Positions 3,058 to 30,275 of a stretch of DNA of 30,400 nt are shown here, in pieces. The notes below the pieces were generated by a model. It worked only from the letters and a program-made list of their open reading frames with translations, searched no databases and had not been told where the DNA came from. The translations under genes were made by a program, and so were the position numbers. Source of the stretch: an uncultured Gammaproteobacteria bacterium (lineage in GTDB: Bacteria > Patescibacteriota > Microgenomatia > Daviesbacterales > UBA10151); assembly GCA_964360965.1 (NCBI GenBank), contig CAYHYM010000009.1:1-30400 (forward strand), given 5' to 3'. Numbering within the stretch: position 1 is the first letter of the stretch; each line of letters opens with the position of its first letter.

Positions 3058-4446
3058 TTAAAGTTTGAATCTTCTATCCGCTAAAAAAGGGTTGGGTTTT
3101 CTTTTCATCTCTCCTGTACCCAAAAGTATACCTCTTTGCAAAGTAAATTCACCATATTTGTTGTTAATTTGATCTATAGCTTGAATAATTTTTTCTTGAA
3201 CAGCTGATTCTGGTAATAAAGACAGATTTTGGGGAGTTTCACTCTTTAAATTAGAGATAGAAACTCCCACCGTTCTAATTTTATCTCCATTCCAGATAGT
3301 ATGAAATATCTTCCAGGTAGCTTTAAAAATTTCTAGACCATCACAAGTATATGGGATAGTTACTTGCATCCCATCACCATGGAACACACCTCCGAGGTGT
3401 AACTGCATTTCTTCACCTCGGAGGTGGAAGCTATATCTAAACCAGCAGTGGACAGTTCTACCAACTAATTTTTTAGCTCTCAACCTTCTAGCTACTAACT
3501 CTGTCAGTTTTAATAAAAGCTGTTTGATCTCCTCTAGGTTATTAGTATCATGAGAAGTAGTGTGCCTATGCCCAATACTCTTAACCTCTTCTTTCTCATA
3601 AAAAGGGATAATAGGAGCATGATTTATTCCACGACTGCAATCATATAAAAATTGCCCATAGCTTTTAAAATAAAAAATTAAAATATCAAGAGTTGCCTCT
3701 CTTAGCTGTTTAAAATTAAAAATTCCCAGTTTATTCAGCCTATTTTTAATCCCTGGACCTATTCCACAAACAGCATCAAGTTCCAGTTTATCCAAAACCT
3801 TAATTGCCTCTTTCTGATTGGCAATAATCACCAACCCATCTGGCTTTTGTAAAGATCCAGCAAGCTTTGCCAAAAGCTTGTTATATGAAATGCCTATGGA
3901 ACAAGTTATCCACTCACCAATTTCAGTTTTGATTCTTTTTTTAATGCTTTTAGCAATTTCTAATATGTCATCCCCGCGTAGGCGGGGATCCAATAAACTG
4001 TTAGCGCTATTATTTAATTGGATTCCTGCATTCGCAGGAATGACAGAAGTAGGTATCTCTAAAAACACTTCATCTATTGAAAACACCTCCAGATAGGGAG
4101 AATAATCTTTTAGAATATTTAAAAACTTTTTTGTTGTCTCCAAATATTTATCAGAATCCCCTGGGACAATTGTAATTTGCGGACAAAGCTTTTTGGCTTC
4201 CCAAATTTGCATGCCGGTTTTAACTCCGAACTTTTTAGCCTCTACAGAGGCTGCCCCAATCACTGTCCGTTCCCCGCCTCGACTCGCTCGCTCGTCGGGC
4301 GAGGCGGGCATCCTATCTCCACCAGTAACCCCAATTGGTTTTCCTCTCAGCCTGGGATTAGCCTGCTGCTCCACAGTAGCAAAGTAGCTATTAAAATCAA
4401 CATGTAAAATAGTTCTTATTCTTCTTCTACCATCTCCAGAAACCAT
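3058..4446 (-). CDS. dinB: Y-family DNA polymerase IV
   Basis: ILHVDFNSYFATVEQ, KPIGVTGG, SIDEVFLE, SIGISYNKLLAKLAGSLQKPDG, GIGPGIKNRLNKLGI. The ORF is interrupted in frame by three GC-rich elements. Confidence 0.9.
   Translation of the reverse strand: MVSGDGRRRIRTILHVDFNSYFATVEQQANPRLRGKPIGVTGGDRMPASPDERASRGGERTVIGAASVEAKKFGVKTGMQIWEAKKLCPQITIVPGDSDKYLETTKKFLNILKDYSPYLEVFSIDEVFLEIPTSVIPANAGIQLNNSANSLLDPRLRGDDILEIAKSIKKRIKTEIGEWITCSIGISYNKLLAKLAGSLQKPDGLVIIANQKEAIKVLDKLELDAVCGIGPGIKNRLNKLGIFNFKQLREATLDILIFYFKSYGQFLYDCSRGINHAPIIPFYEKEEVKSIGHRHTTSHDTNNLEEIKQLLLKLTELVARRLRAKKLVGRTVHCWFRYSFHLRGEEMQLHLGGVFHGDGMQVTIPYTCDGLEIFKATWKIFHTIWNGDKIRTVGVSISNLKSETPQNLSLLPESAVQEKIIQAIDQINNKYGEFTLQRGILLGTGEMKRKPNPFLADRRFKL
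3386..3426. repeat. pair of inverted REP-like hairpins inside dinB
   Basis: ACACCTCCGAGGTGT (3386-3400) and CACCTCGGAGGTG (3414-3426) are mutual reverse complements. Translated in frame as HLRGEEMQLHLGGV. Confidence 0.7.
3967..4044. mobile_element. 78-nt MITE-like element with terminal inverted repeats, in frame in dinB
   Basis: Left end GTCATCCCCGCGTAGGCGGGGATCCAAT. Right end ATTGGATTCCTGCATTCGCAGGAATGAC, the reverse complement of GTCATTCCTGCGAATGCAGGAATCCAAT. Encodes VIPANAGIQLNNSANSLLDPRLRGDD (26 codons). Confidence 0.75.
4266..4310. repeat. GC-rich hairpin insertion inside dinB
   Basis: CCCGCCTCG (4273-4281) pairs with CGAGGCGGG (4300-4308). Encodes PASPDERASRGGE between the conserved blocks KPIGVTGG and VIGAASVEAKKFGV. 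Confidence 0.65.
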
Positions 4447-4903: not shown

Positions 4904-6397
4904 ATGAAGATATTTGTTATAACGCTATTTCTCCTCTCATTTTTTTTAGTATTCAACTCCCCAGTCAAAGCCATAGTTGATCCCCTCTCTGTTCCTAACA
5001 ATAAATTTGGCATTCATATTATTCAAGCTACTCCTGATGAATCATCTCCGGCGGCCCAACTAGTCAACACCAACGGTGACTGGGGCTATATTACTTTTTT
5101 AATAGAATCCAAGGATAGAAATGAAAGTAAATGGCAGGAGTTTTTTAATGATCTAAGAAGAAAACATCTAATTCCGATTGTTAGGTTAGCCACCAAACCA
5201 GTTAATACTCACTGGGAAAGACCTTATGAAAAAGAGGGTGAAGCTTGGGCCCACTTTTTAGACAAATTAGTCTGGCCTACCAAAAACAGGTATATCATTA
5301 TCTATAATGAGCCAAATCATGCTCAAGAATGGGGAAATTTTACAGATCCTATTTCTTATGCCCATATTTTAAATGACACCATAGATACTCTAAAGAAAAA
5401 GTCTCCGGATTTTTATGTCTTAAATGCCGGTTTTGATGCTTCAGCCCCTCATCAACCACCTAGATTTTTTGATGAAGTAGTTTTTTTACAGGAAATGGAA
5501 AAGGCAGTACCGGGAATTTTTGAAAAATTAGATGGGTGGGTGTCACATTCCTATCCAAATCCGGAATTTTCCGGTTCTCCGGATGCTTTGGGGCGAGGCA
5601 CTGTTCGAACCTACGTTTGGGAACTACAGCAACTGCGTAATTTGGGTGTTTCGAAAAATTTGCCTGTTTTTATCACAGAAACCGGCTGGAAACATGCTGA
5701 AGGATTAACTTTTGAGCCTAGATTCCCTGCAGCAGATACTGTGGCCAGATATTACCAACAGGCTTTTGAAAATGCCTGGAACAGTTCCAGGATCATCGCC
5801 GTGACTCCATTTTTATTAAGCTATCAAGAGCCTTTATTTGCCCATTTTTCCTTTAAAGGACCCACCAATTCCGGACTATATTATCCTCAATATGACACCA
5901 TCAAAAACATGCCTAAAATTTCCGGCCAACCCATCCAGGAAAACAAGGCTACTTTAATCAAAGGTGAGGTCTTTTCATCCATTGTTTCAGGAGAAACTTA
6001 TACCATTTTTCTAACTTTCAAAAATAGCGGCCAATCAATCTGGAATGATGGCTCGCCTCGCTCCTCGCCTCGCGGCGAAGCGGGCGCGGGCGGAGCGGGG
6101 AAAAGGGTGGCTTTGGTGCCAATTGAAAGTGGCAGAGAATTGGGCATAGAACAGATATCCATTCCAGATGGGGTGCAAATTGAACCGGGCAAAGAATATA
6201 CCTTCCAAATTCAACTGAAAGCTCCGCTGAAGGGTATTTTTAAGGTTAGTTTGAATCTGTTTACCGGCAGCCACCCGTTTGATTCAAAACCACCGGTTAT
6301 TTTGCGCCTTTTAACTAAATTAAAATGGAGAAATTCTCCGGCCGGAGAATATATTTTAAGAACTATCGGCACCATAGGTGAATCTACTCAATTATAA
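4904..6397 (+). CDS. secreted clan GH-A-like glycoside hydrolase with C-terminal Ig-like domain
   Basis: Signal peptide MKIFVITLFLLSFFLVFNSPVKA. IIIYNEPNH (acid/base-type NEP motif) and VFITETGW (nucleophile-type TE motif). C-terminal beta-rich region carries a GC-rich insert. Confidence 0.5.
   Translation: MKIFVITLFLLSFFLVFNSPVKAIVDPLSVPNNKFGIHIIQATPDESSPAAQLVNTNGDWGYITFLIESKDRNESKWQEFFNDLRRKHLIPIVRLATKPVNTHWERPYEKEGEAWAHFLDKLVWPTKNRYIIIYNEPNHAQEWGNFTDPISYAHILNDTIDTLKKKSPDFYVLNAGFDASAPHQPPRFFDEVVFLQEMEKAVPGIFEKLDGWVSHSYPNPEFSGSPDALGRGTVRTYVWELQQLRNLGVSKNLPVFITETGWKHAEGLTFEPRFPAADTVARYYQQAFENAWNSSRIIAVTPFLLSYQEPLFAHFSFKGPTNSGLYYPQYDTIKNMPKISGQPIQENKATLIKGEVFSSIVSGETYTIFLTFKNSGQSIWNDGSPRSSPRGEAGAGGAGKRVALVPIESGRELGIEQISIPDGVQIEPGKEYTFQIQLKAPLKGIFKVSLNLFTGSHPFDSKPPVILRLLTKLKWRNSPAGEYILRTIGTIGESTQL
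6051..6100. repeat. GC-rich element (SPRSSPR..GEAGAGGAG family) in frame in the hydrolase gene
   Basis: GCTCGCCTCGCTCCTCGCCTCGCG+GCGAAGCGGGCGCGGGCGGAGCGGGG. Both blocks recur exactly in uvrA at 20723-20793 on the other strand. Confidence 0.8.
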
Positions 6398-6470: not shown

Positions 6471-6758
6471 ATGAATGATACCCAAAAAATGCTTCAGGCT
6501 ATTATTAATGGGCAAAGTTCCATTAAACAAGAGTTGTCAGGTAAAATTGATAAAGTTGATCAAAAAGTAGAGAAATTAGCTGGAACAGTAGCAGGACTGG
6601 ATGGGAAAATTGATAAAGTGGAAAAAAGATTGACAGAAAGACTAGATAAAATTGGCAAACAACTCGCATATCTTGAGGATGACACTCCAACTAGAGAAGA
6701 GTATGACGAACTAGAAGAGAGGGTAGATAAAATGAGCGAAGCTCCTGCTTCGCAGTAG
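6471..6758 (+). CDS. hypothetical small coiled-coil protein
   Basis: 95-aa ORF with heptad-like KIDKV repeats and an acidic tail. Confidence 0.5.
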   Translation: MNDTQKMLQAIINGQSSIKQELSGKIDKVDQKVEKLAGTVAGLDGKIDKVEKRLTERLDKIGKQLAYLEDDTPTREEYDELEERVDKMSEAPASQ

Positions 6759-6816
6759 AACAAAAAGTTGCTTCAGTATAAATTGTTGTCAAGGGATAAT
6801 TGCCAAAATTGGGGTA

Positions 6817-6919
6817 TTGACAAGTAATAAATAGTATGGTTAAATATACTTACTTGTTAACCGAAAGGTTTACAAGTTCTCGAAGAAAGCCCCGCAAGGG
6901 GTTTTTTTCGTGGTAAAAT
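6817..6919 (+). repeat. 103-nt promoter-hairpin-terminator module, copy 1
   Basis: 102/103 identical to 8352-8454. Contains TTGACA-N17-TTAAAT, a 10-bp hairpin with GAAA loop, an intrinsic terminator, then TGgTAAAAT. Confidence 0.85.
6852..6908 (+). ncRNA. candidate ~55-nt small RNA (copy 1)
   Basis: Predicted start about 7 nt after TTAAAT (6840-6845). Hairpin CTTGTTAACC-GAAA-GGTTTACAAG (6853-6876). Terminator GCCCC-GCAA-GGGGT plus T-run (6886-6908). Confidence 0.35.
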
Positions 6920-7002
6920 ATATGAGTTGAGAATCTTATCTGGCTCTGTCATAATTGTTATTACCTGATTCATCACGACAGAGCAGAGGACAAAGTACTT
7001 AT

Positions 7003-7074
7003 GGAGACGTTGGTGTAACGGTAGCACAACAGATTGTGGATCTGTTAGCGGGGGTTCAACTCCCCTACGCCTCC
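7003..7074 (+). tRNA. tRNA-His(GUG) with encoded G-1
   Basis: G-1 at 7003 pairs with C73. Acceptor GAGACGT/ACGCCTC (one A/C mismatch), D arm GTGT-AACGGTA-GCAC, anticodon loop TT-GTG-GA, T arm GGGGG-TTCAACT-CCCCT. Confidence 0.8.
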
Positions 7075-7086
7075 CACGTATGTTTT

Positions 7087-7116
7087 TCGCGGGTTCAAAT
7101 CCCGTCGACCACCCCA
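7087..7116 (+). pseudogene. orphan tRNA 3' fragment (T arm + acceptor 3' strand + CCA)
   Basis: TCGCGGGTTCAAATCCCGTCGACCACCCCA. No matching 5' acceptor strand (GTGGTCG) anywhere nearby. Confidence 0.55.
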
Positions 7117-7177
7117 AGGATTTTAGCTTCATTTTTTACTACCACTGATGGGATTATTGAACCCATAAGCTGGGGAC

Positions 7178-7681
7178 TTATTTCAATAGGTTTTCAATCT
7201 GATTTACTGTCTCCTCAGGAGTTTGGTTAGTATTGTCAATTTTGTGTTCATTAAGAAAACTTAACTCATCCCTTAATCTATGATTAAAACGAATAGACTC
7301 TTCGTAATCTCGGAAACCACTATCCCTAGATTCAGTTAAAATTCTTTGCTTCAGCACCTCATCATCGCTAAGAATTAACGTGATGACTATGTATTTGAAA
7401 TCTTTTAATTCTGTTAAGATTGCACCAATTTTTTCTTCTGTAAAACCACCGACAATTACATTTTTATAATCATGTTTTGTATAATTTTTTAAAAGAAACA
7501 ATAAGTTCTCAAAAGACATCTTTTCTTCTGAGTCACTAGTATTACTCCAACCTTTATTAAGATGGAAATCTCTAATCCAATCATAATCTAAATGCACAGA
7601 GTTTAGTTTCTTTTTAAGAAGTCTTGCTAGTGTCGTTTTACCAGATCCCTGTGCACCTAGAATAAATATAAAGTCGTACAT
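7178..7681 (-). CDS. P-loop NTPase / small-molecule-kinase-like protein
   Basis: Walker A GAQGSGKTT at the N-terminus. Size (167 aa) and layout resemble AAA_33/shikimate-kinase-like kinases. Confidence 0.6.
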   Translation of the reverse strand: MYDFIFILGAQGSGKTTLARLLKKKLNSVHLDYDWIRDFHLNKGWSNTSDSEEKMSFENLLFLLKNYTKHDYKNVIVGGFTEEKIGAILTELKDFKYIVITLILSDDEVLKQRILTESRDSGFRDYEESIRFNHRLRDELSFLNEHKIDNTNQTPEETVNQIENLLK

Positions 7682-7787
7682 ACCTGAAGTATATCAGGAG
7701 AAGTTAGGAATTGTAAGGATAGGCTTAAATGAGGTTATTTGGGTACAAACTGCATCCAGCCACCCACCCCTAATGTAAAATTAAAAT

Positions 7788-8033
7788 TTACTGAGGAATA
7801 TCTGGTATTATTGGCAAATCCAAGTGCTTTTTAATTTGATCAATCTCTCTTTTATCTCTTTGATGCCAAAGACCAATTTCATCATGCGTAGCTTTTACCT
7901 CTGATAGAACTTGCTCCATATCCCCTGATAAAGCTTCTAATCTTCTGGTATGATCTTCAAGGGTTTCTTTAATTGGGTCTACAGCTTTATTTACAACTTC
8001 TTCAACTATCGCCTTTAGCTTATTCTCATCCAT
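7788..8033 (-). CDS. hypothetical small coiled-coil protein
   Basis: 81-aa ORF, charged and helical, with no recognised motif. Confidence 0.45.
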   Translation of the reverse strand: MDENKLKAIVEEVVNKAVDPIKETLEDHTRRLEALSGDMEQVLSEVKATHDEIGLWHQRDKREIDQIKKHLDLPIIPDIPQ

Positions 8034-8152
8034 AAATTTATGTTAACTCCAAAAGCTGGAAAAAACAAGAGAGATTATCTAGATCATGTAATGAGTCACA
8101 AATTCCTTTTTGGTATGATAGAATTGTCTAAGAAAAAAGGAGGTGAAAAAGT

Positions 8153-8314
8153 ATGTGTTATAACTGTGGATGTGATATGCCGGATGATGACATGGGCAAT
8201 GCCAAAAATATTACCAATAAAACTATCGAGGAAGCTGCAGCTGCCTCAGGAGTGTCTGTAAAGCAGGCCAAGAAAAACATCTTAAAGCTGCTACAAAAAG
8301 CGCAGGAACAATAA
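8153..8314 (+). CDS. small Cys-rich protein (MCYNCGCDMPDDDMG...)
   Basis: 53-codon ORF below the ORF-track cutoff. Strong SD AAGGAGGTG 7 nt upstream of the ATG. N-terminal CxxCxC motif. Preferred over the overlapping 8040-8261 ORF, which has no SD. Confidence 0.6.
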   Translation: MCYNCGCDMPDDDMGNAKNITNKTIEEAAAASGVSVKQAKKNILKLLQKAQEQ

Positions 8315-8351
8315 GAATAAACTTGAGATATTCTGATCCTCTTTTACCCAC

Positions 8352-8454
8352 TTGACAAGTAATAAATAGTATGGTTAAATATACTTACTTGTTAACCGAA
8401 AGGTTTACAAGTTCTCGAAGAAAGCCCCGCAAGGGGCTTTTTTCGTGGTAAAAT
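8352..8454 (+). repeat. 103-nt promoter-hairpin-terminator module, copy 2
   Basis: 102/103 identical to 6817-6919. The only difference is C versus T in the terminator stem. Ends 9 nt before tRNA-Arg. Confidence 0.85.
8387..8443 (+). ncRNA. candidate ~55-nt small RNA (copy 2)
   Basis: Same architecture as 6852-6908. Terminator GCCCC-GCAA-GGGGC followed by TTTTTT. Confidence 0.35.
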
Positions 8455-8463
8455 TAAACATAT

Positions 8464-8536
8464 GCGCCCGTAGTTTAATGGATAGAACGTGTGGCTTCGG
8501 ACCATAAGGTTGGGGGTTCGACTCCCTCCGGGCGCG
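8464..8536 (+). tRNA. tRNA-Arg(UCG)
   Basis: Acceptor GCGCCCG/CGGGCGC, anticodon stem TGTGG/CCATA, loop CT-TCG-GA, T arm GGGGG-TTCGACT-CCCTC. Confidence 0.8.
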
Positions 8537-8546
8537 CACCCAAAAT

Positions 8547-8619
8547 GGGCCGGTAGCTCAACTGGTAGAGCAACTCCCTCTTAAGGAGTAGGTTCAGGGT
8601 TCAAATCCCTGCCGGCTCA
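8547..8619 (+). tRNA. tRNA-Lys(CUU)
   Basis: Acceptor GGGCCGG/CCGGCTC, D arm GCTC-AACTGGT-AGAGC, anticodon stem ACTCC/GGAGT, loop CT-CTT-AA, T arm CAGGG-TTCAAAT-CCCTG. Confidence 0.85.
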
Positions 8620-8621
8620 CT

Positions 8622-13354: not shown

Positions 13355-14671
13355 TCATAGTAGCGCTTCCTTATTCCTTAGTTTTCTATGGAAAGTTAAG
13401 GCAAACCTGTGAGCTTCATCACGCAATTTTTGCAAAAGCTGCAAACTTAAGGATTTTTTGGAAAGTTTTATAATTCGAGCCTTGCGAGAATTACTCAGCG
13501 AAATTCGAGCCTTGCGAGAATTACTCAGTGAAGCGCTAATTTCTCCCTCCGGGGGATAGAGCCATTCCCTTCTTTTGGCCAGACCGAAGATGGGTAGATT
13601 GTGATTAGTAGTTTGTAGTTCGTAGTTTACCGCATTAACTTGTCCCTTGCCACCATCTACTATTATCAGATTAGGGATAGGCCAATCTTTGTGTTTTAAC
13701 CTTCTTCTGATCACTTCTCTCATCATTGCTACATCATTAGGTTTGCCGCTGAGGCGAATCTTAAATTTTCTATACTGTGATTTATCAATATCTCCCTCAT
13801 TTAAAACCACCATTGAACCTGTGGCATTTTTCCCTCCAATATTGGAGATATCATATCCTTCTATTCTTAAAGGTAAAGTTTTTAGATTTAAAACTTTTTT
13901 CAGCTCCTGCAGGGCCAAATTTTTTTGATCTTCGAAAAAATTAGAATTCTCCAAATAAGCCTGGACATTGTTTGGTTGAGTGAGATAATTTATTCCGTCT
14001 ATGATTTTTTTAAGTTTACTTGCTTCTTCAAACTTCTCTCTCTCTGATAGCTTTAACATATCCATTGTCAGTTCCTCAATTAATTTATCCTTTTTCCCGT
14101 CCATAAATTTTGAGAATCGGTTGATTATTTTGTTATAGTCTTCCTTGGAAATTAGCCCAACACAAACTCCTGGACATAATCCCAGATGATGATAAAAACA
14201 TGCTCGACGGGTTCGCAAGGCCAGGCCTTGCGAGGCTGAACACCAAGGGAAGACTTTCCTGAGTAGTTTGAGGGTGTTCCTAACAGTTCTAGCTGAAGGA
14301 AAAGGGCCAAAGAATTTTTTTACCCTTCTCAAATCTTGTTTTCTAAGAGTAATAACTTTGGGAAATTCTTCTTTGGTGATACCAATATATAAATAATCCT
14401 TATCATCTGTTAGTCTGACATTATATTTTGGCAAGTATTTTTTAATAAGACTCGCCTCTAAGATAAGCGCTTCCAACTCTGATGCAACAACAATAGTTTC
14501 AACTGAAGATATTGCAGAAGATAACATGGCTGTCTTTGCGCTCAGACCGAATCGGTTGCTGCGTGAAAAATATGAAGATATCCGATGGTATAAATTTATG
14601 GCTTTACCCACATAAATTACCTGACCATCTTTATTTTTAAAAATATATACCCCGGGTTTTTTGGGAAACAT
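13355..14671 (-). CDS. uvrC: excinuclease ABC subunit C, short form without (HhH)2 domain
   Basis: N-terminal GIY-YIG (PGVYIFKNKDGQVIYVGKA..LYHRISSYF), a UVR-like helix pair (EREKFEEASKLKKIIDGI), IEGYDISNIGG and RDEAHRFAL. The ORF stops about 20 aa after the last motif. Confidence 0.85.
   Translation of the reverse strand: MFPKKPGVYIFKNKDGQVIYVGKAINLYHRISSYFSRSNRFGLSAKTAMLSSAISSVETIVVASELEALILEASLIKKYLPKYNVRLTDDKDYLYIGITKEEFPKVITLRKQDLRRVKKFFGPFPSARTVRNTLKLLRKVFPWCSASQGLALRTRRACFYHHLGLCPGVCVGLISKEDYNKIINRFSKFMDGKKDKLIEELTMDMLKLSEREKFEEASKLKKIIDGINYLTQPNNVQAYLENSNFFEDQKNLALQELKKVLNLKTLPLRIEGYDISNIGGKNATGSMVVLNEGDIDKSQYRKFKIRLSGKPNDVAMMREVIRRRLKHKDWPIPNLIIVDGGKGQVNAVNYELQTTNHNLPIFGLAKRREWLYPPEGEISASLSNSRKARISLSNSRKARIIKLSKKSLSLQLLQKLRDEAHRFALTFHRKLRNKEALL
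13472..13531. repeat. 2 x 30-nt tandem duplication inside uvrC
   Basis: AATTCGAGCCTTGCGAGAATTACTCAG(C/T)GA twice, 29/30 identical. Encodes SLSNSRKARI twice. Confidence 0.85.
14203..14238. repeat. GC-rich palindrome inside uvrC
   Basis: CGCAAGGCC-A-GGCCTTGCG (14214-14232). Shares the GCCTTGCGAG core with the tandem unit at 13472-13531. Encodes ASQGLALRTR. Confidence 0.6.
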
Positions 14672-14673
14672 AA

Positions 14674-16665
14674 TTATTTATTCGAAGCAGGTTTTGCAAA
14701 ACGCCTTCTGTAGATAAGTGTTCCTAAAATGGCAAAGTATAAAACTGCCACCACTGCCACGAGTCCCAATGCAATCCAGGGAAAATTCTGTAGGATGAAA
14801 AATGGCCTGACCTTTATCTCATGTCGTTCCTTTATTCCTGCCACCTGAATCTCAATAACATCATCAAAGCTATCCAAAAGAGATTTAGTTCTGAGTTCAA
14901 ATTCAAACTGGGCAAATCCAAAGGAAGGTATTGGACCAGATTGGACAGCAGCCCCATTTAAAATGTTGACCTGTCCGGCATTGACAGATAAGTTTGATGA
15001 CGGAAGAGCGGCATTTCCCAAATTTTCTATTTTTATATTAATTTTATGGGGAAATCCTGCCAAAATTTGCTTTTTTACATCAATGATTAAATTGGGCTGC
15101 GGCTTTCCCAAAAAATCACTTTGTGATAGCTCCACTTTGACATCATGGCTGTCCATCCCGCTCAATTTATATGAGCCGGCAGGAACAGGCTGCTCTGATG
15201 ATGAACCTTTGATAACAAATACAAAATGATTTAAATCCAGCTTATTAAAATAATCAACTCCACCAGTGGTGTTTTGCCAGGTTGGATCAACCATTACCCA
15301 ACCTCGATTATCATCCCAATACTCAGGCCAGGCATGTAAAATGTCGCGAGACAAAGACAGCGGCCGCAACGCAAGATTGGTGGTATAGGCAAATCCGTCC
15401 AGCTCCCTGGCAGGGATCCCGGCAGCCCGGGTTAAGCTGATAAAAAGATCGGTAAATTCCATACAAACAGCAGAGGTTGGGTTATTTAAGGCTGTAACAG
15501 CGCCCAACCTTTCAATATTTTCATTGGAGAGCCTGGAAGTATCATATTGTAAAGTAGATATCACACTCTGATAAATTAGTTTTACCTTTTGCTCTGTTGA
15601 AGAGGGCTGATTAGTACTTAAGATTTCACTTAGTTTACTTTTAACTGTCGGGTGATCTTTTTCCCAATATTTTTGAGTGGTAGTATATTTTTGATAAAGA
15701 CCGGTCGGTAAGACTGGGTTTTTCACTTTTGTTAAGATATAAAGCTTGGCTGATCCGGTGGCCTTAACAGATAACTTTTGGGCTCTTTTCAGTTTATACC
15801 AGGCAAGATAATTACCATCCTCATCTAAAGTCACATTAATCGGCTTTGGCTCAATTCGCTGATAAATCACCTCCTGATAGGCTGTATCCGGAGGCAGGGC
15901 AATATTGGTGAGAACCGGTACCAGATTGGGATTTTCCAAATTATATGTCAAATTAAAATCATAAACTTGAAAACTGCCAAAAGTGGCGGAAACACCTGAT
16001 AATATCAACTGGTCTTTGTCAAATATTAAAAAGGTCCTGCCGGATGAGGTACTCTGTCGTTTTGGGGTGGGACTGATAATGGAAGGCGGACCAAAGCTTT
16101 GAGGAGTGGAAATTGTCAAATTATAACTTTGAAGACCGGGCGCTGATTGAATTTTGGGAGCGGATATTTCCCAGATTTTACCTAAATGCTGGGCAAAATC
16201 AGATGATTTAAAACTAAGGGTAAAAGGCTGCTCTTTTCCTACTCCCGCTATCTGCTGGTTAAACTTAACTGTGATAGAAGTTGAGGTATCTTTTTGCTCT
16301 GATGTCACCTCCATTAAGCCTCCTTGGTCTGAGGCTTTGATATCGGTAATTTGGGTGGCTCCAATAATAAGTTTAAACTGGCTGGCAAAATATTGACTGG
16401 TTAGATTCCTGAGGGTAATTTTTTCAGTAACTGAAGTTATTCCACTTAAGTCTATATCATAAGTTACATCATATGAGGTGGCAAAATCTTGTCCTGAGCT
16501 AGCTTGCCCTGAGCCTGTCGTACTTCGATTCCACTCAGTACGACCCTGAGTGTTAATCGAATGGGTCGAAGGGGTCGAAGGATCTTCGGCAGCAAAGACA
16601 GCAGTCAGTGAAAAGTAAAAAGTAAAAATTGAAAATATAACAGCCAGGAAAATTTTCTTGATCAT
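14674..16665 (-). CDS. transglutaminase-like cysteine-protease-fold surface protein
   Basis: Cys-His-Asp pattern: AVCMEFTDLF, ILHAWPEYW, WVMVDPTW. N-terminal signal peptide MIKKIFLAVIFSIFTFYFSLTAVFA and a C-terminal TM span. The ORF-track start at 16695 is possible but adds 10 non-signal residues. Confidence 0.75.
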   Translation of the reverse strand: MIKKIFLAVIFSIFTFYFSLTAVFAAEDPSTPSTHSINTQGRTEWNRSTTGSGQASSGQDFATSYDVTYDIDLSGITSVTEKITLRNLTSQYFASQFKLIIGATQITDIKASDQGGLMEVTSEQKDTSTSITVKFNQQIAGVGKEQPFTLSFKSSDFAQHLGKIWEISAPKIQSAPGLQSYNLTISTPQSFGPPSIISPTPKRQSTSSGRTFLIFDKDQLILSGVSATFGSFQVYDFNLTYNLENPNLVPVLTNIALPPDTAYQEVIYQRIEPKPINVTLDEDGNYLAWYKLKRAQKLSVKATGSAKLYILTKVKNPVLPTGLYQKYTTTQKYWEKDHPTVKSKLSEILSTNQPSSTEQKVKLIYQSVISTLQYDTSRLSNENIERLGAVTALNNPTSAVCMEFTDLFISLTRAAGIPARELDGFAYTTNLALRPLSLSRDILHAWPEYWDDNRGWVMVDPTWQNTTGGVDYFNKLDLNHFVFVIKGSSSEQPVPAGSYKLSGMDSHDVKVELSQSDFLGKPQPNLIIDVKKQILAGFPHKINIKIENLGNAALPSSNLSVNAGQVNILNGAAVQSGPIPSFGFAQFEFELRTKSLLDSFDDVIEIQVAGIKERHEIKVRPFFILQNFPWIALGLVAVVAVLYFAILGTLIYRRRFAKPASNK
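16491..16590. repeat. GC-rich composite element (CCTGAGC / GGTCGAAGG family) in frame near the N-terminus of the transglutaminase-like gene
   Basis: Contains CCTGAGC x3, GGGTCGAAGGGGTCGAAGG and the hairpin GTCGTAC-N14-GTACGAC. Encodes PSTPSTHSINTQGRTEWNRSTTGSGQASSGQD. Confidence 0.6.
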
Positions 16666-16749
16666 AATGTCATCCCAGAGAATACCGGGATCCATAAATA
16701 TTGTAGCAATTTTATTATGTCATTGCTAGCGAATGATGGAAAGCTAAAA

Positions 16750-16782
16750 TTTAGCTTGACACCTGAGAGGTGTAAACGTAAA
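16750..16782 (+). repeat. REP-like element upstream of the RAYT ORF
   Basis: TTTAGCTTGACACCTGAGAGGTGTAAACGTAAA with hairpin ACACCT-GAG-AGGTGT at 16759-16773. Exact inverted copy at 26126-26158. Confidence 0.85.
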
Positions 16783-16791
16783 ATAAATTTA

Positions 16792-17448
16792 ATGCCTGGA
16801 AGAAAAACTGTTTTTGAGAATGGATATTTTTATCATGTCTATAACCGGGGCTCTGAAAAAAGGGATATTTTTATAAAACCGCAAAATTATCAAAGATTCA
16901 TAAAAACTATGTACTATTATCAGTACGAGGGACCAAAACTAAGGCTTTCCCTACTAAATCAGGACGGATTCCAAAATTTTAAACCGGATCCCAGTAAGAA
17001 ATTAGTTGAAATTATCTGTTATTGCTTAATGCCTAACCACTTTCACATTCTAATAAAACAACTCAAAGAAAATGGAATTTCTAAATTTATTAGTCAATTA
17101 AGTAATAGCTACACCAAATATTTTAATACCAAATATAAACGTGTAGGAGCTTTATTCCAGGGTGTATTTCAGGCAGTTATTATTGAATCCGATGAACAGT
17201 TCATTCATACCTCCAGATATATTCATTTAAACCCGTCAGTATCAACCTTGGTAGAGAACCCTGCCAATTGGCCTTGGTCCTCTTATACCGAGTATGTTGA
17301 TAAGAAAAAGGGTATTTGTGTTAAAGAACCAATAATGAGTCATTTTCCTTCTGTGGAAGCTTACAAAAAATTTGTCTTGGATCAGCTTGATTACGGGAGG
17401 ATTCTCGAAATCTTAAAACACGGAGCCATTGATTATGATTACACCTGA
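16792..17448 (+). CDS. IS200/IS605-type Y1 (HUH) transposase, REP-associated tyrosine transposase (RAYT)-like
   Basis: YHVYNRG, the HUH motif MPNHFHILIK, and the catalytic-Tyr motif SRYIHLNP. Start set to ATG 16792, because the upstream TTG extension is made of REP sequence. The TGA stop lies inside a REP hairpin. Confidence 0.8.
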   Translation: MPGRKTVFENGYFYHVYNRGSEKRDIFIKPQNYQRFIKTMYYYQYEGPKLRLSLLNQDGFQNFKPDPSKKLVEIICYCLMPNHFHILIKQLKENGISKFISQLSNSYTKYFNTKYKRVGALFQGVFQAVIIESDEQFIHTSRYIHLNPSVSTLVENPANWPWSSYTEYVDKKKGICVKEPIMSHFPSVEAYKKFVLDQLDYGRILEILKHGAIDYDYT

Positions 17449-18179: not shown

Positions 18180-21100
18180 TTATAGTATCTTTGCCAAATA
18201 TTGCCCTGTATAGGAGGATTTGATTTTGGATATATCTTTGGGGGTGCCTTCTGCAATAACTTGTCCGCCTTTATCCCCACCTTCCGGGCCTAAATCTATT
18301 ACCCAATCGGTATTTTTAATCACATCAAGATTGTGCTCTATAATCACCACAGTATTTCCATAGTTTACCAGCTTCCTTAAGATGGTTAATAACCTTTCTA
18401 TATCAGCAAAATGTAAACCGGTGGTGGGTTCGTCCAAAATATAAAGAGTGTGACCAGTTGGACGCTTAGATAATTCAGCAGAAAGTTTAATCCTTTGTGC
18501 CTCTCCACCAGACAGCGTGGGAGCTGGTTGGCCCAATTTTATATATCCCAATCCCACATCATTTAGTACTTGCAGTTTATTTTTGATATTGGGAATATTT
18601 TCAAAAAACTTTAAAGCTTCCTCAACAGTCATGTCCAAAACTTCAGAAATATTTTTATCCTTAAAGTGAATTTCCAAAGCCTCCCTGTTGTAGCGGGCAC
18701 CGTTGCAAGCCTCACAAGTCACATAAACATCCGGCAAAAACTGCATTTCAATTTTGAGCTGCCCTTCCCCTTCACAAACCTCACACCTTCCACCTTTGAC
18801 ATTAAAGGAAAACCTGCCTGGTCCATAACCCCTAATTTTAGCTTCAGTACTTTGGGCAAATAGGTCTCTGACAAAGGTAAAGGCTTCTGTATAGGTGGCC
18901 GGATTTGAGCGGGGAGTCCGGCCTATTGGTGATTGGTCTACCAAAACCACTTTATCCACATACTCTACCCCCTCCAGTTCTTTAAAAGCCCCTGGTCTTT
19001 CCTTGGATCTATAAATTTTTTGAGCTAACGCCTTATATAAGATGTCGTGAATTAAAGTAGATTTTCCGGATCCTGAAACCCCTGATATGGCTATAAACTG
19101 CCCTAAAGGAAAATCCACATTGATATTTTTTAAATTGTGTTGAGAAGCACCAAGAACCTTCAAAACATGATTGTCATTCCCGCGCAGGTCATCGACTCCG
19201 AGGTCGCTCAGACTCGAGGAGCGGGAATCTATTTTAATATTATTTATGGATCCCGTATCCCTTCGGCCTCGCTCAGGGCGGGCAAGTTCAGGATGACCGT
19301 GAACAGTCACTTTTTTCTTACCTGATAAATACTGTCCAGTTAAAGATGTAGTACTTTTTTTAATCTGATCCGGAGTGCCTGTGGTTACTATCTCCCCACC
19401 ATGTTCACCAGCTCCTGGCCCAATTTCAATTAATAGATCTGCATTCTCCATCATCTCTGCATCATGCTCATTAACTATCACTGTATTTCCCAAATCTCTT
19501 AATTTTTTTAAAGTTTCAATTAATCTTGAGTTATCTCTTTGGTGTAAACCAATAGAAGGCTCATCTAAAACATACAAAACTCCGGATAAACCCGAACCAA
19601 TTTGGGAGGCCAGCCTGATTCTTTGTGATTCTCCCCCGGCTAAGGTCATAGCAGCGCGATCCAGCGTTAAATAATCCAAACCAACATCAATTAAGAACTT
19701 AACTCTGGCTTGGATTTCTTTTAAAATAGGTTTGGCAATTTGAGTTTCACGATCATTTAAAATAGATTCTATCACTTCACTACGTTTCGCTCCAGAATGA
19801 CTATTCCCCAATCTTTTAATCCATTCCAAAGCCTCTTTAATAGATTGTGTCACCACTTCTGCAATATTTAATCCATCAATGGTTATTGACAAGGCTTCAT
19901 CTTTAAGTCTTGCTCCATGACACTTAGGACAAATCTCTTTAACCATATATTTTTCTATTTCCCTTTTCACATAATCAGATTCGGATTCTTGATATCTTTG
20001 TTTTAGGTATGAAACCAAACCTTGAAAGCTAGATTTAAAATGAGTCCATCTTCCCTCTCTGTTTCTTCCTTCCACTCTAAATTCTTCGTCCCCAGCACCA
20101 TTAAGTAGCACATTTCTGGCTTTCTCAGATAATTCACCCAGTCTGGTATTTAAATCAAAACCGTAAACTTTGCCTACTGACTGAATAAGTCTTGAGAACC
20201 AGGTTTCATGAGTGGCTAACTTTTGCCATGGTAAAATTCCACCTTCTGCAATAGATAAAATGGGGTTTAAAACCATTTCCGGATCAATTTCCAAAAGTGA
20301 TCCTAAACCATGGCAGGTAGGACAAGCTCCATGAGGAGAATTAAAAGAAAATAGTCTTGGTTCCACCTCGGATAAGGCAATATTGTCAACCGGACAGGCA
20401 AATCTTTCAGAATAAAGATGATCGTCCATTTTCTTGGGATTTTGGGGAAATTCTAAAGAAGCGTCCAGGACTTCAGAAACAATCACGGATCCTTCACCTA
20501 ATTTGAGCGCTGTCTCGATGGATTGGGAGAGCCTGTTTATAATGTCATTCCCGCGCATGCGGGAATCCAATTCCGAACGTGACTTTGTTAATTGGATCCT
20601 CCTCGAGTCTGAGCGACCTCGGAGTCGAAGACCTGCCTTCGCAGGGATAACAGACTTATCCAATATGAGTCTGTCCACTACTGCATCGATAGTATGCTTA
20701 TTAGTTTTAATCAACACTAAATCCCCCGCTCCGCCCGCGCCCGCTTCGCCGCGCCCTGCGTCGCCGGAGGCGCGAGGCGAGGAGCGAGGCGAGTCTGTTA
20801 AGTCTCTAATTTGTCCATCAACCCTAACCTTTGAAAAACCTTTTTTCCTCAAATCTTCAAAAAGTTGGAAATATTCTCCTTTTCTGTCTTTAACCACAGG
20901 AGCCAAAATCATTATTCTTCTCGAAGACCCTGAGCGAGACTTCGACGGTGAGTCTTTCGACCCTGAGCTCAAGACCGAAGGGCTCAGTCGAACCGCGTAG
21001 CGAGTCGAAGGGTTCCCTACCACTTGTTCCACAATTTGTTCTACTGACATTCTACTAATCTCCCTTCCACAAATTGGACAATGGGGATGGCCAACCCTGG

Positions 21101-30238: not shown

Positions 30239-30275
30239 GACAATATCATATCAAATTTCGTATAATATTAAAGCT

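Follow-up and report, generated by a model that had tools for sequence, protein, structure and literature searches.

A candidate small-RNA gene family adjoining tRNA-His in Candidatus Daviesbacteria and other Microgenomates

The locus

The DNA analysed here (the window) is a stretch of 30,400 nucleotides (nt), positions 1 to 30,400 of contig CAYHYM010000009.1 (assembly GCA_964360965.1), filed under an uncultured Gammaproteobacteria bacterium and placed by GTDB in the Patescibacteriota (Microgenomatia, Daviesbacterales). By exact-protein look-ups, which found two independent assemblies, the window comes from a Hainich aquifer metagenome of well H51, 0.1 µm filter fraction. Its surrounding genes are ordinary chromosomal ones, among them those for a DinB-type polymerase, an aminotransferase, an NYN-domain protein, SecG and UvrC. 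Our subject is a 103-nt module present as a direct repeat at 6817-6919 and 8352-8454, 1535 nt from start to start, with each copy upstream of tRNA genes. Each module is probably a compact gene for a small RNA (sRNA), with its own promoter and terminator, joined to the -10 element of the next tRNA promoter. In its general design, a promoter followed by a structured RNA and a terminator, the gene holds no surprise. The parts of the two copies are listed below, and loci in relatives carry L numbers.

6817 to 6845, plus strand: predicted sRNA promoter of copy 1, read from the sequence (-35 TTGACA at 6817-6822, 17-nt spacer, TGG at 6837-6839, -10 TTAAAT at 6840-6845)
8352 to 8380, plus strand: predicted sRNA promoter of copy 2, identical to that of copy 1
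6852 to 6908, plus strand: predicted 57-nt small RNA of copy 1 (covariance model R1, 86.6 bits; fold -30.1 kcal/mol, z = -7.5), with the P1 hairpin at 6852-6877 (GAAA loop 6863-6866), the linker UCUCG at 6878-6882 and the terminator hairpin at 6883-6908 (GCAA loop 6894-6897, then the U-tract)
8387 to 8443, plus strand: predicted 57-nt small RNA of copy 2 (R1, 89.4 bits; fold -32.5 kcal/mol, z = -7.8), in which C8437 restores a G-C pair
6911 to 6919, plus strand: extended -10 TGGTAAAAT of copy 1; the same element is fused to the terminator in L061 and L075
8446 to 8454, plus strand: extended -10 TGGTAAAAT of copy 2, ending 9 nt before tRNA-Arg(UCG)
6805 to 6816, plus strand: motif AAAATTGGGGTA directly 5' of the -35, at copy 1 only and typical of the family described below

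A sequence-only reading of the window had reported that the two copies differ at one base and had listed their parts. All of these parts are present, and the sole mismatch is T6902 against C8437, a difference that keeps a stem pair (G.U versus G-C). Identity runs from the first T of TTGACA to the last T of TAAAAT, and the ends are sharp when both regions are aligned. The alignment took in 77 nt of upstream and 91 nt of downstream flank, and over these lengths no alignable sequence was seen on either side; the flanks are unrelated, so the repeat stands alone and is not, as the same reading had allowed, part of a larger segmental duplication. The copy alignment shows no terminal inverted repeats or target duplications at the 103-nt repeat. 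Neither hairpin sequence has a further match with up to 3 mismatches in the window, and shuffled sequences would be expected to give none.

Predicted promoter, RNA and terminator

As had been noted, TTGACA-N17-TTAAAT with a TGG extension is found in both copies. The -35 and spacer are of the kind sought in the promoter test (TTGACA-like, 16-18 nt), and relatives have TTGAC(A/T/G/C) with 17-18 nt. Downstream, hairpin 1 at 6852-6877 is ACUUGUUAACC-GAAA-GGUUUACAAGU, which as RNA reads ACUUGU.AACC-GAAA-GGUU.ACAAGU. It had been described as a 10-bp hairpin with a GAAA loop; the ten pairs and the loop stand, although the stem has 11 positions, one of them a U.U mismatch. Hairpin 2 is GCCCC-GCAA-GGGG(U/C) with an A-rich 5' flank and a 3' flank of U6-7. 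Here too the earlier description needs only an adjustment of length: the stem and its A- and T-runs are present, and once these tracts are included the fold is a 13-bp stem, CGAAGAAAGCCCC-GCAA-GGGGCUUUUUUCG. A GC-rich stem-loop placed directly before a U-tract is the hallmark of an intrinsic terminator, and this is what the predicted terminator has. It was missed by the consensus scanner, probably because the stem extends into the A/U tracts.

The 63-nt transcript region folds at -30 to -32.5 kcal/mol, against about -12 for shuffled sequences (z = -7.5 to -7.8). Folding is much poorer on the minus strand (-23.5 versus -35 kcal/mol).

An RNA family in relatives

Conservation in relatives had been named as a check on the module. 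It is kept as a unit, with the same architecture, in about 30 loci of Candidatus Daviesbacteria/Microgenomates. Scanning metagenomes for the linker-terminator pattern gave 23 loci, 22 of them with every part of the architecture, and a covariance model added four more distant Daviesbacteria/Microgenomates loci and one further locus. The conserved order begins with TTGAC(A), a spacer of 17-18 nt and a -10 that often carries TGn, followed by exactly 6 nt and then A+1. Next, A+1CYUGU opens a closing stem (P1) around a variable, GNRA-capped interior, and ACARGU closes it. Last come the linker UYUCKAAGRA, a GCAA-loop hairpin, U6 and (A/C)GUG. The invariant core consists of the stem base ACYUGU/ACARGU, the linker UYUCKAAGRA and the GCAA terminator.

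Family members can be divided by their interior. The short type has a single-hairpin interior and a 57-nt RNA, and includes window copies 1 and 2 as well as L053, L059, L060, L061, L063, L070 and L075 (twice); the copy 2 RNA is identical in sequence to that of L063. The long type, found in ten loci, has a three-way junction with GNRA-capped arms and a 93-nt RNA. Other interior variants occur in L048, L051, L055, L065, L074, L078, L080, L082 and L083. Short-type relatives also have TTTGGGG(N1-2) directly before TTGACAAG. This upstream TTGGGG motif of the family is kept at copy 1, and unrelated sequence takes its place at copy 2.

The conservation of the element can be set beside that of its neighbours. 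In relatives where the locus lies around a GH5-like gene, the terminator half of the element is 92-97% identical and always upstream of tRNA-His; the DNA identity of the GH5-like gene itself is about 80% in L048 and L049 and 73% in L051. The GH5-like protein of the window (497 aa) has its homologs nearly all in Candidatus Daviesbacteria/Microgenomates, the closest being 74% identical.

No established RNA family accounts for the element. With the gathering and E-value thresholds of Rfam 15, only tRNAs pass in the window and in short- and long-type relatives, and the best non-tRNA match is RNAI (RF00106), at 29-31 bits against a gathering score of 47. Signal recognition particle (SRP) RNA, 6S RNA and RNase P RNA were considered as identities and rejected, with nothing above noise in Rfam. 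For RNase P, GAAAGUCC is shared with region CR-I, but it is not conserved in the short type. The element has no match in viral contigs, phage genomes or plasmid collections, and a scan of the genome collection with the pattern CCGAAAGGN{18,28}GCCCCGCAAGGGG gave unrelated sequences only, mostly a Ktedonobacteraceae repeat. Apparently, then, these genes form an undescribed RNA family that spans Candidatus Daviesbacteria/Microgenomates, as judged from their sequences.

Selection and covariation

The pattern of change within the family indicates what is being maintained. Comparison of six distinct short-type loci gives 100% identity for the 26-nt hairpin 1 but only 55% for the promoter spacer plus discriminator, which argues that the RNA rather than the DNA is under selection. 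The hexamers and the distance of exactly 6 nt to A+1 are invariant in position while the spacer drifts, as expected of a promoter. Similarly, the ten long-type RNAs have a mean column identity of 96% and their promoter spacers visibly differ.

A covariance model of the hairpin across relatives, proposed with the first description of the module, was built, and the stems covary. In the short-type alignment 96.6% of cells are paired and 5 pairs have changed on both sides, a result equalled by 0 of 500 shuffles. The family alignment of 25 distinct members has 97.1% of cells paired and double changes in 11 of 22 pairs (again 0/500 shuffles), and pairing falls to 57-69% when the partners are slid by one column. 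Individual cases include position 3-60 of P1 in the long type, where C-G has switched to U-A in 4 of 10 RNAs, and the terminator stems of distant relatives, which are compensatory (CCCGCC/GGUGGG and UCCCGC/GCGGGA) and retain the GCAA loop. G.U and U.G pairs are conserved as well, for example a G.U in 24 of 24 sequences. Because of these pairs, and because the minus strand folds worse, the plus strand can be taken as the RNA strand.

The proposed sRNA of some 55 nt, equipped with a promoter and a terminator of its own, is thus supported at the sequence level by the fixed distance from hexamer to hairpin, the covarying stems and the kept terminator. Comparison among relatives lies behind each element of the prediction, namely the gene boundaries, structure, strand, family, synteny and the tRNA-promoter motif.

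Link with tRNA-His

The module had been described as lying upstream of tRNA genes in each copy. This is true of the window; family-wide, the partner is specifically tRNA-His and not tRNAs in general. Among copies with at least 250 nt of downstream DNA, the next tRNA on the same strand is tRNA-His in 21 of 23, the two exceptions being window copy 2, which precedes tRNA-Arg, and L080, which is followed by a broken tRNA-His start. The sRNA and tRNA-His lie 23-51 nt apart in compact loci; inserted DNA widens the gap to 79-1902 nt in others. By this comparison, the ancestral position of the gene is immediately upstream of tRNA-His. In L058, L048, L062, L063, L064, L066, L078, L082 and L083 the RNA gene is intact with 198-1902 nt inserted before tRNA-His; the intervening DNA includes a LytR-family gene, small open reading frames (ORFs), a Y1-transposase or an HNH cassette, and promoter and terminator are still intact. 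That the gene survives across 0.2-1.9 kb of foreign DNA is the main argument for an RNA that acts independently of the tRNA, in trans.

In L062 (2389-2500), L064 (12134-12260) and L069 (minus strand), arrays of tiny GNRA-type hairpins with alternating AGTG/GCG separators sit directly 3' of the sRNA terminator, before the tRNA-His promoter.

The same adjacency can be read in another way. The element may be a cis-acting leader or attenuator in which a nut-like boxB-boxA pair loads NusB/S10, the terminator stops only unmodified polymerase, and tRNA-His output is thereby tied to the supply of Nus factors and ribosomal proteins. The order of hairpin and then GUUCUCUAAGA does resemble the boxB-then-boxA order of ribosomal RNA (rRNA) leaders, and tRNA-His lies directly downstream in the 21 of 23 copies just mentioned. 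The gamma-proteobacterial boxA consensus is GYTCTTTAANA (PMC5725501), which the commonest family linker, GUUCUCUAAGA, fits at 10 of 11 positions. However, its sole mismatch is T6C, and T6 is one position of the C4T/T6C double mutant that abolishes boxA function in Escherichia coli suhB (PMC5725501). The window form GTTCTCGAAGA and the long-type form GTTTTCTAAGA fit at no more than 9 of 11, differing at positions 4, 6 and 7. Membership in boxA was rejected on this comparison (window GUUCUCGAAGA at 9/11, the best family form at 10/11 with its mismatch at T6), leaving a resemblance only. Three further points weigh against a leader: no anti-terminator pairing is visible in the fold of the transcript region, tRNA-His has its own conserved extended -10 between terminator and tRNA, and the element is intact up to 1.9 kb from tRNA-His with convergent genes between. 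We consider a leader of this kind unlikely.

As in boxB-boxA leaders, which NusB/NusE bind, a hairpin stands directly before a U-rich motif at the start of a stable-RNA unit; unlike them, the element has its own strong predicted terminator directly after, and the downstream tRNA has its own promoter.

Proposed extended -10 promoters of the tRNA genes

The third part of the module is the element TGGTAAAAT at its 3' edge, which had been proposed as an extended -10 promoter for the tRNAs. The genes assigned to it at copy 2 are as follows.

8464 to 8620, plus strand: tRNA-Arg(UCG) at 8464-8537 and tRNA-Lys(CUU) at 8547-8620, assigned to the copy-2 extended -10

The spacing of 9 nt to tRNA-Arg was correct as first given, and at copy 1 the distance is 84 nt to the ARAGORN start of tRNA-His, or 83 nt to G-1. 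Of 40 distinct tRNA upstream regions from this lineage, 20 carry TGnTAnAWT with its end 7-13 nt before the ARAGORN tRNA start, compared with 0.39% of random positions, an enrichment of about 130-fold. This bears out the proposal as far as sequence can, and TGGTAAAAT is credibly a -35-less extended -10 tRNA promoter giving leaders of a few nt. Other tRNA genes of the lineage have the same extended -10 without any such element upstream. The tRNA genes of the lineage generally have TGnTAAAAT ending 9-12 nt before the mature tRNA 5' end, in the window at 1408-1426, 8446-8463 and 30261-30275; because of this spacing, precursor leaders in the lineage would be only 2-5 nt long.

The module could also act at the level of DNA or transcription with a functionless RNA, either as a bidirectional terminator or insulator that shields the tRNA promoter or as a promoter 'relay' that re-initiates at the tRNA promoter. 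Its terminator is symmetric (A-tract, hairpin, T-tract), and a convergent gene on the minus strand ends 5-20 nt away in L058, L082 and L083. In the short type the tRNA extended -10 starts 2 nt past the U-tract, and nearly the same linker and hairpin occur as a plain terminator in L073. If a relay were at work, a strong promoter, a 57-nt transcript and a terminator would feed a -35-less tRNA promoter 10 nt downstream, which would be a new way to drive stable-RNA genes in very small genomes. An insulator, however, needs no conserved promoter or 5' hairpin. Against this reading also stand the full identity of hairpin 1 beside a promoter spacer at 55%, the covariation of P1 and the 96% mean column identity of the long-type three-way-junction domain. 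Moreover, the extended -10 serves other tRNA genes of the lineage with no element upstream, and the element persists far from any tRNA promoter. An insulator or relay with a functionless RNA is therefore a rather unlikely reading.

A decayed HNH/tRNA-His cassette downstream of copy 1

Between copy 1 and its tRNA lies the remnant of another element, and the features concerned are listed here.

6920 to 7003, plus strand: HNH-endonuclease gene remnant, the last ~28 codons, now the tRNA-His 5' leader (aligns to the 3' end of the L058 HNH ORF, 3560-4054, and to L062)
7003 to 7075, plus strand: tRNA-His(GUG) of the cassette type GAGACGUUGG..., with G-1 encoded (ARAGORN, Rfam; nearly identical to the L058 cassette tRNA-His)
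7089 to 7116, plus strand: orphan 3' fragment of the displaced native tRNA-His, comprising the T arm, the acceptor 3' strand and CCA (matches native tRNA-His 3' ends in relatives; same arrangement in L058)

The complete form can be seen in L058, where the native tRNA-His promoter and 5' half are followed by an HNH ORF, another tRNA-His that overlaps the end of the ORF, and the native 3' fragment. The ORF has a canonical HNH motif, with a Pfam HNH_3 score of 21.1 bits that is below the cut-off of 24.8. In L058 (3445-4160), L062 (3230-3405) and L066 (1546-1954), the native tRNA-His gene is interrupted in its anticodon region by an HNH ORF and a replacement tRNA-His, so that native 5' and 3' fragments are left. 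Of this unit, window 6920-7116 has nothing but the end of the ORF, the cassette tRNA and the native 3' fragment. From its gene arrangement, the unit looks like a putative homing cassette aimed at tRNA-His. The orphan tRNA fragment of the window can be explained by displacement of the native tRNA-His by this cassette. At the junction, GGTAAAAT of the module -10 stands against GGCAAAAT in the HNH gene, which suggests that the native 5' half was lost, together with most of the HNH gene, in a microhomology deletion. A tRNA-His promoter at 6927-6955 (TTGAGA-17-CATAAT), offered by the consensus scan, was rejected as the primary one, being the coding tail of the dead HNH gene.

A related situation is known in phage T4, where the free-standing homing endonuclease SegB lies amid tRNA genes and moves with flanking tRNA sequence (PMC2330249). 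Both systems have a homing-type endonuclease gene embedded among tRNA genes. In contrast to SegB, the putative homing unit described here is HNH rather than GIY-YIG and has its own replacement tRNA-His inside the split chromosomal tRNA-His of a bacterium of the candidate phyla radiation (CPR). Nothing specific to HNH-tRNA cassettes was found in the literature.

Origin of the second copy

The two copies bracket a segment whose contents are as the sequence-only reading gave them: tRNA-His, the orphan tRNA fragment, a P-loop kinase and two small ORFs.

7178 to 8314: segment between the copies, with the P-loop kinase gene at 7178-7681 (minus strand), an 81-aa coiled-coil ORF at 7788-8033 (minus strand) and a 53-aa ORF at 8153-8314 (plus strand) (ORF list, Pfam AAA_18)

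Relatives indicate that the second copy is not a general feature. L061, a short-type locus with tRNA-His and later tRNA-Arg(UCG)-tRNA-Lys(CUU), has TGATAAAAT 10 nt before tRNA-Arg(UCG) and no sRNA copy there, and the second copy is likewise absent from L085 and L086. In L075, from another organism of that aquifer sample, two copies lie 1.2 kb apart; their hairpin 1 is identical, and their promoters and terminators differ. In L070 an sRNA copy adjoins an 86%-identical homolog of the 81-aa ORF found near window copy 2, and the promoter spacer differs. The two-copy state has thus been seen in more than one organism, but solely among contigs from a single Hainich groundwater sample. For the window copies, whose identity of 99% extends to the spacer, gene conversion or a very recent re-duplication is the best explanation, since the spacer is otherwise fast-evolving and differs between copies elsewhere. 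The ends of the identical tract would then be where the homology between the paralogs stops. Recombination between the copies had been suggested as a route to deletion or duplication of the 1.4-kb segment; a deletion would take away the one tRNA-His gene that the window shows. Exact-protein look-ups of both flanking genes returned the parental arrangement only, in two contigs each, and no recombinant contig.

Two near-identical copies 1.5 kb apart could also point to a mobile or selfish repeat (REP- or MITE-like), or to a neutral recent duplication that merely resembles a gene. Contigs do break at the element in L050, L053, L055, L070 and L075, and the window has a Y1-transposase (RAYT-like) gene and REP-like palindromes. 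These palindromes, ACACCTGAGAGGTGT, are nevertheless a different sequence from the module. Nearly all relatives have one copy per locus (two in L075), and the 30 kb window has only two. The tRNA-His-adjacent position is conserved, the repeat has neither terminal inverted repeats nor target duplications, and the element is absent from phage, plasmid and viral collections. Finally, it is conserved in relatives whose neighbour protein is only 59-74% identical, which argues for selection. A mobile or neutral repeat is on these grounds highly improbable.

Other repeats were seen in these genomes. The Y1-transposase (RAYT-like) gene of the window lies at 16717-17448, and its REP-like palindromes ACACCTGAGAGGTGT are at 16759, 17441, 17565 and 26135. 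In L078 (11925-12755) a Y1_Tnp gene lies between the sRNA and tRNA-His, and a similar palindrome, ACACCTCGGGTGT, precedes the gene. A palindromic unit, ATGTCATCCC-hairpin-GGGATCCA, is found in at least 4 places (3957-3992, 4016-4045 in inverted orientation, 16659-16694 and 20534-20569), and the UvrC-like gene has a tandem 30-nt duplication, perfect to 97%, at 13472-13531. The GH5-like gene at 4904-6397 is without about 76 C-terminal residues present in homologs and has, at 6052-6100, a GC-rich in-frame insert of about 50 nt, adding 18 residues absent from the 74%-identical homolog. The insert recurs at 20724-20793 in a 1087-aa ORF, as two perfect inverted-repeat segments of 30 nt and 23 nt; it may be a small GC-rich insertion element tolerated in coding sequence. 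Downstream of the GH5-like gene, at 6471-6758, is a 95-aa coiled-coil ORF whose homologs also adjoin sRNA copies in L058 and L075.

A model for the module

The model that we favour is that of a small-RNA gene followed by a tRNA promoter. A sigma-70-type RNA polymerase would use TTGACA-N17-TGgTTAAAT and start at the A that lies 6-7 nt downstream (6852 and 8387). The first 26 nt would immediately form a 5'-terminal hairpin, capped by a GAAA loop. After the 5-nt linker UCUCG, the GCAA-capped GC-rich hairpin and U6 would terminate transcription near 6908 and 8443, and the product would be a stable RNA of about 57 nt with a hairpin protecting each end. Two bases on, TGGTAAAAT would serve as the -35-less extended -10 promoter of the next tRNA, giving a leader of 2-3 nt for tRNA-Arg/tRNA-Lys at copy 2 and one of about 80 nt, made of the dead HNH remnant, at copy 1. 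The conserved stem base and linker may be the site of contact with a protein or a complementary RNA, a suggestion we offer as possible and tentative.

Several observations weigh against this model and must be taken into account. The promoter and terminator are predictions from consensus and conservation. The window -10, TTAAAT, has no A at position 2 and so departs from the -10 expected of a promoter, and the consensus scanner did not list the site; expression here may be weaker than in relatives, which have TATAAA, TATAGT or TATTAT at the same position. The 25-member alignment was fitted to the model, which inflates its percentage of paired cells. The linker's AAGAAAG pairs with the U-tract, so that its conservation may partly reflect terminator function, and in the unrelated locus L073 a protein gene is followed by almost this linker and hairpin, used as a plain terminator. 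When about 250 kb of related DNA was searched for sites complementary to the linker (up to 2 mismatches in 14), the sole matches were the antisense strands of the elements themselves and one site in a coding region of L074. A role in cis could also lie behind the near-constant adjacency to tRNA-His. In a different direction, the RNA might be a Microgenomates housekeeping RNA tied to tRNA-His, perhaps in a protein-bound particle whose recognition depends on its stem base, linker and GNRA loops, or the module might be a Nus-factor or 'polymerase relay' device; we regard these possibilities as quite unlikely.

Comparison with known small RNAs

Yfr1-type small RNAs of cyanobacteria are about 55-65 nt long and have two stem-loops around a conserved unpaired motif. 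The RNA predicted here is alike in size, in having its own promoter and intrinsic terminator, in the hairpin at each end with a short conserved stretch between, and in its lineage-wide occurrence. There are important differences, however. No sequence or Rfam relationship links the two, part of UYUCKAAGRA is paired with the U-tail, and the 5' domain may be anything from a single hairpin to a three-way junction. The family is also set apart by its tight link to tRNA-His and has no predicted targets. RNAI, the best Rfam match, is likewise a short stem-loop RNA ending in an intrinsic terminator, but the resemblance is generic: the score is sub-threshold, and the element has no plasmid context and no match in plasmid collections.

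Significance

CPR bacteria are uncultured and have tiny genomes, and no description of small RNAs in them was found in the literature. A delimited RNA gene with covariation and a fixed tRNA-His address is a candidate for a new RNA family. The putative HNH endonuclease that brings a replacement tRNA-His into the native gene points to turnover of tRNA loci in these genomes. The family also provides a handle on the transcription signals of the lineage, including a consensus -35/-10 promoter, extended -10 tRNA promoters with predicted leaders of 2-5 nt, and GNRA-capped bidirectional terminators. Should metatranscriptomes show the RNA to be abundant, it would rank among the few lineage-wide non-coding RNAs known in CPR bacteria.

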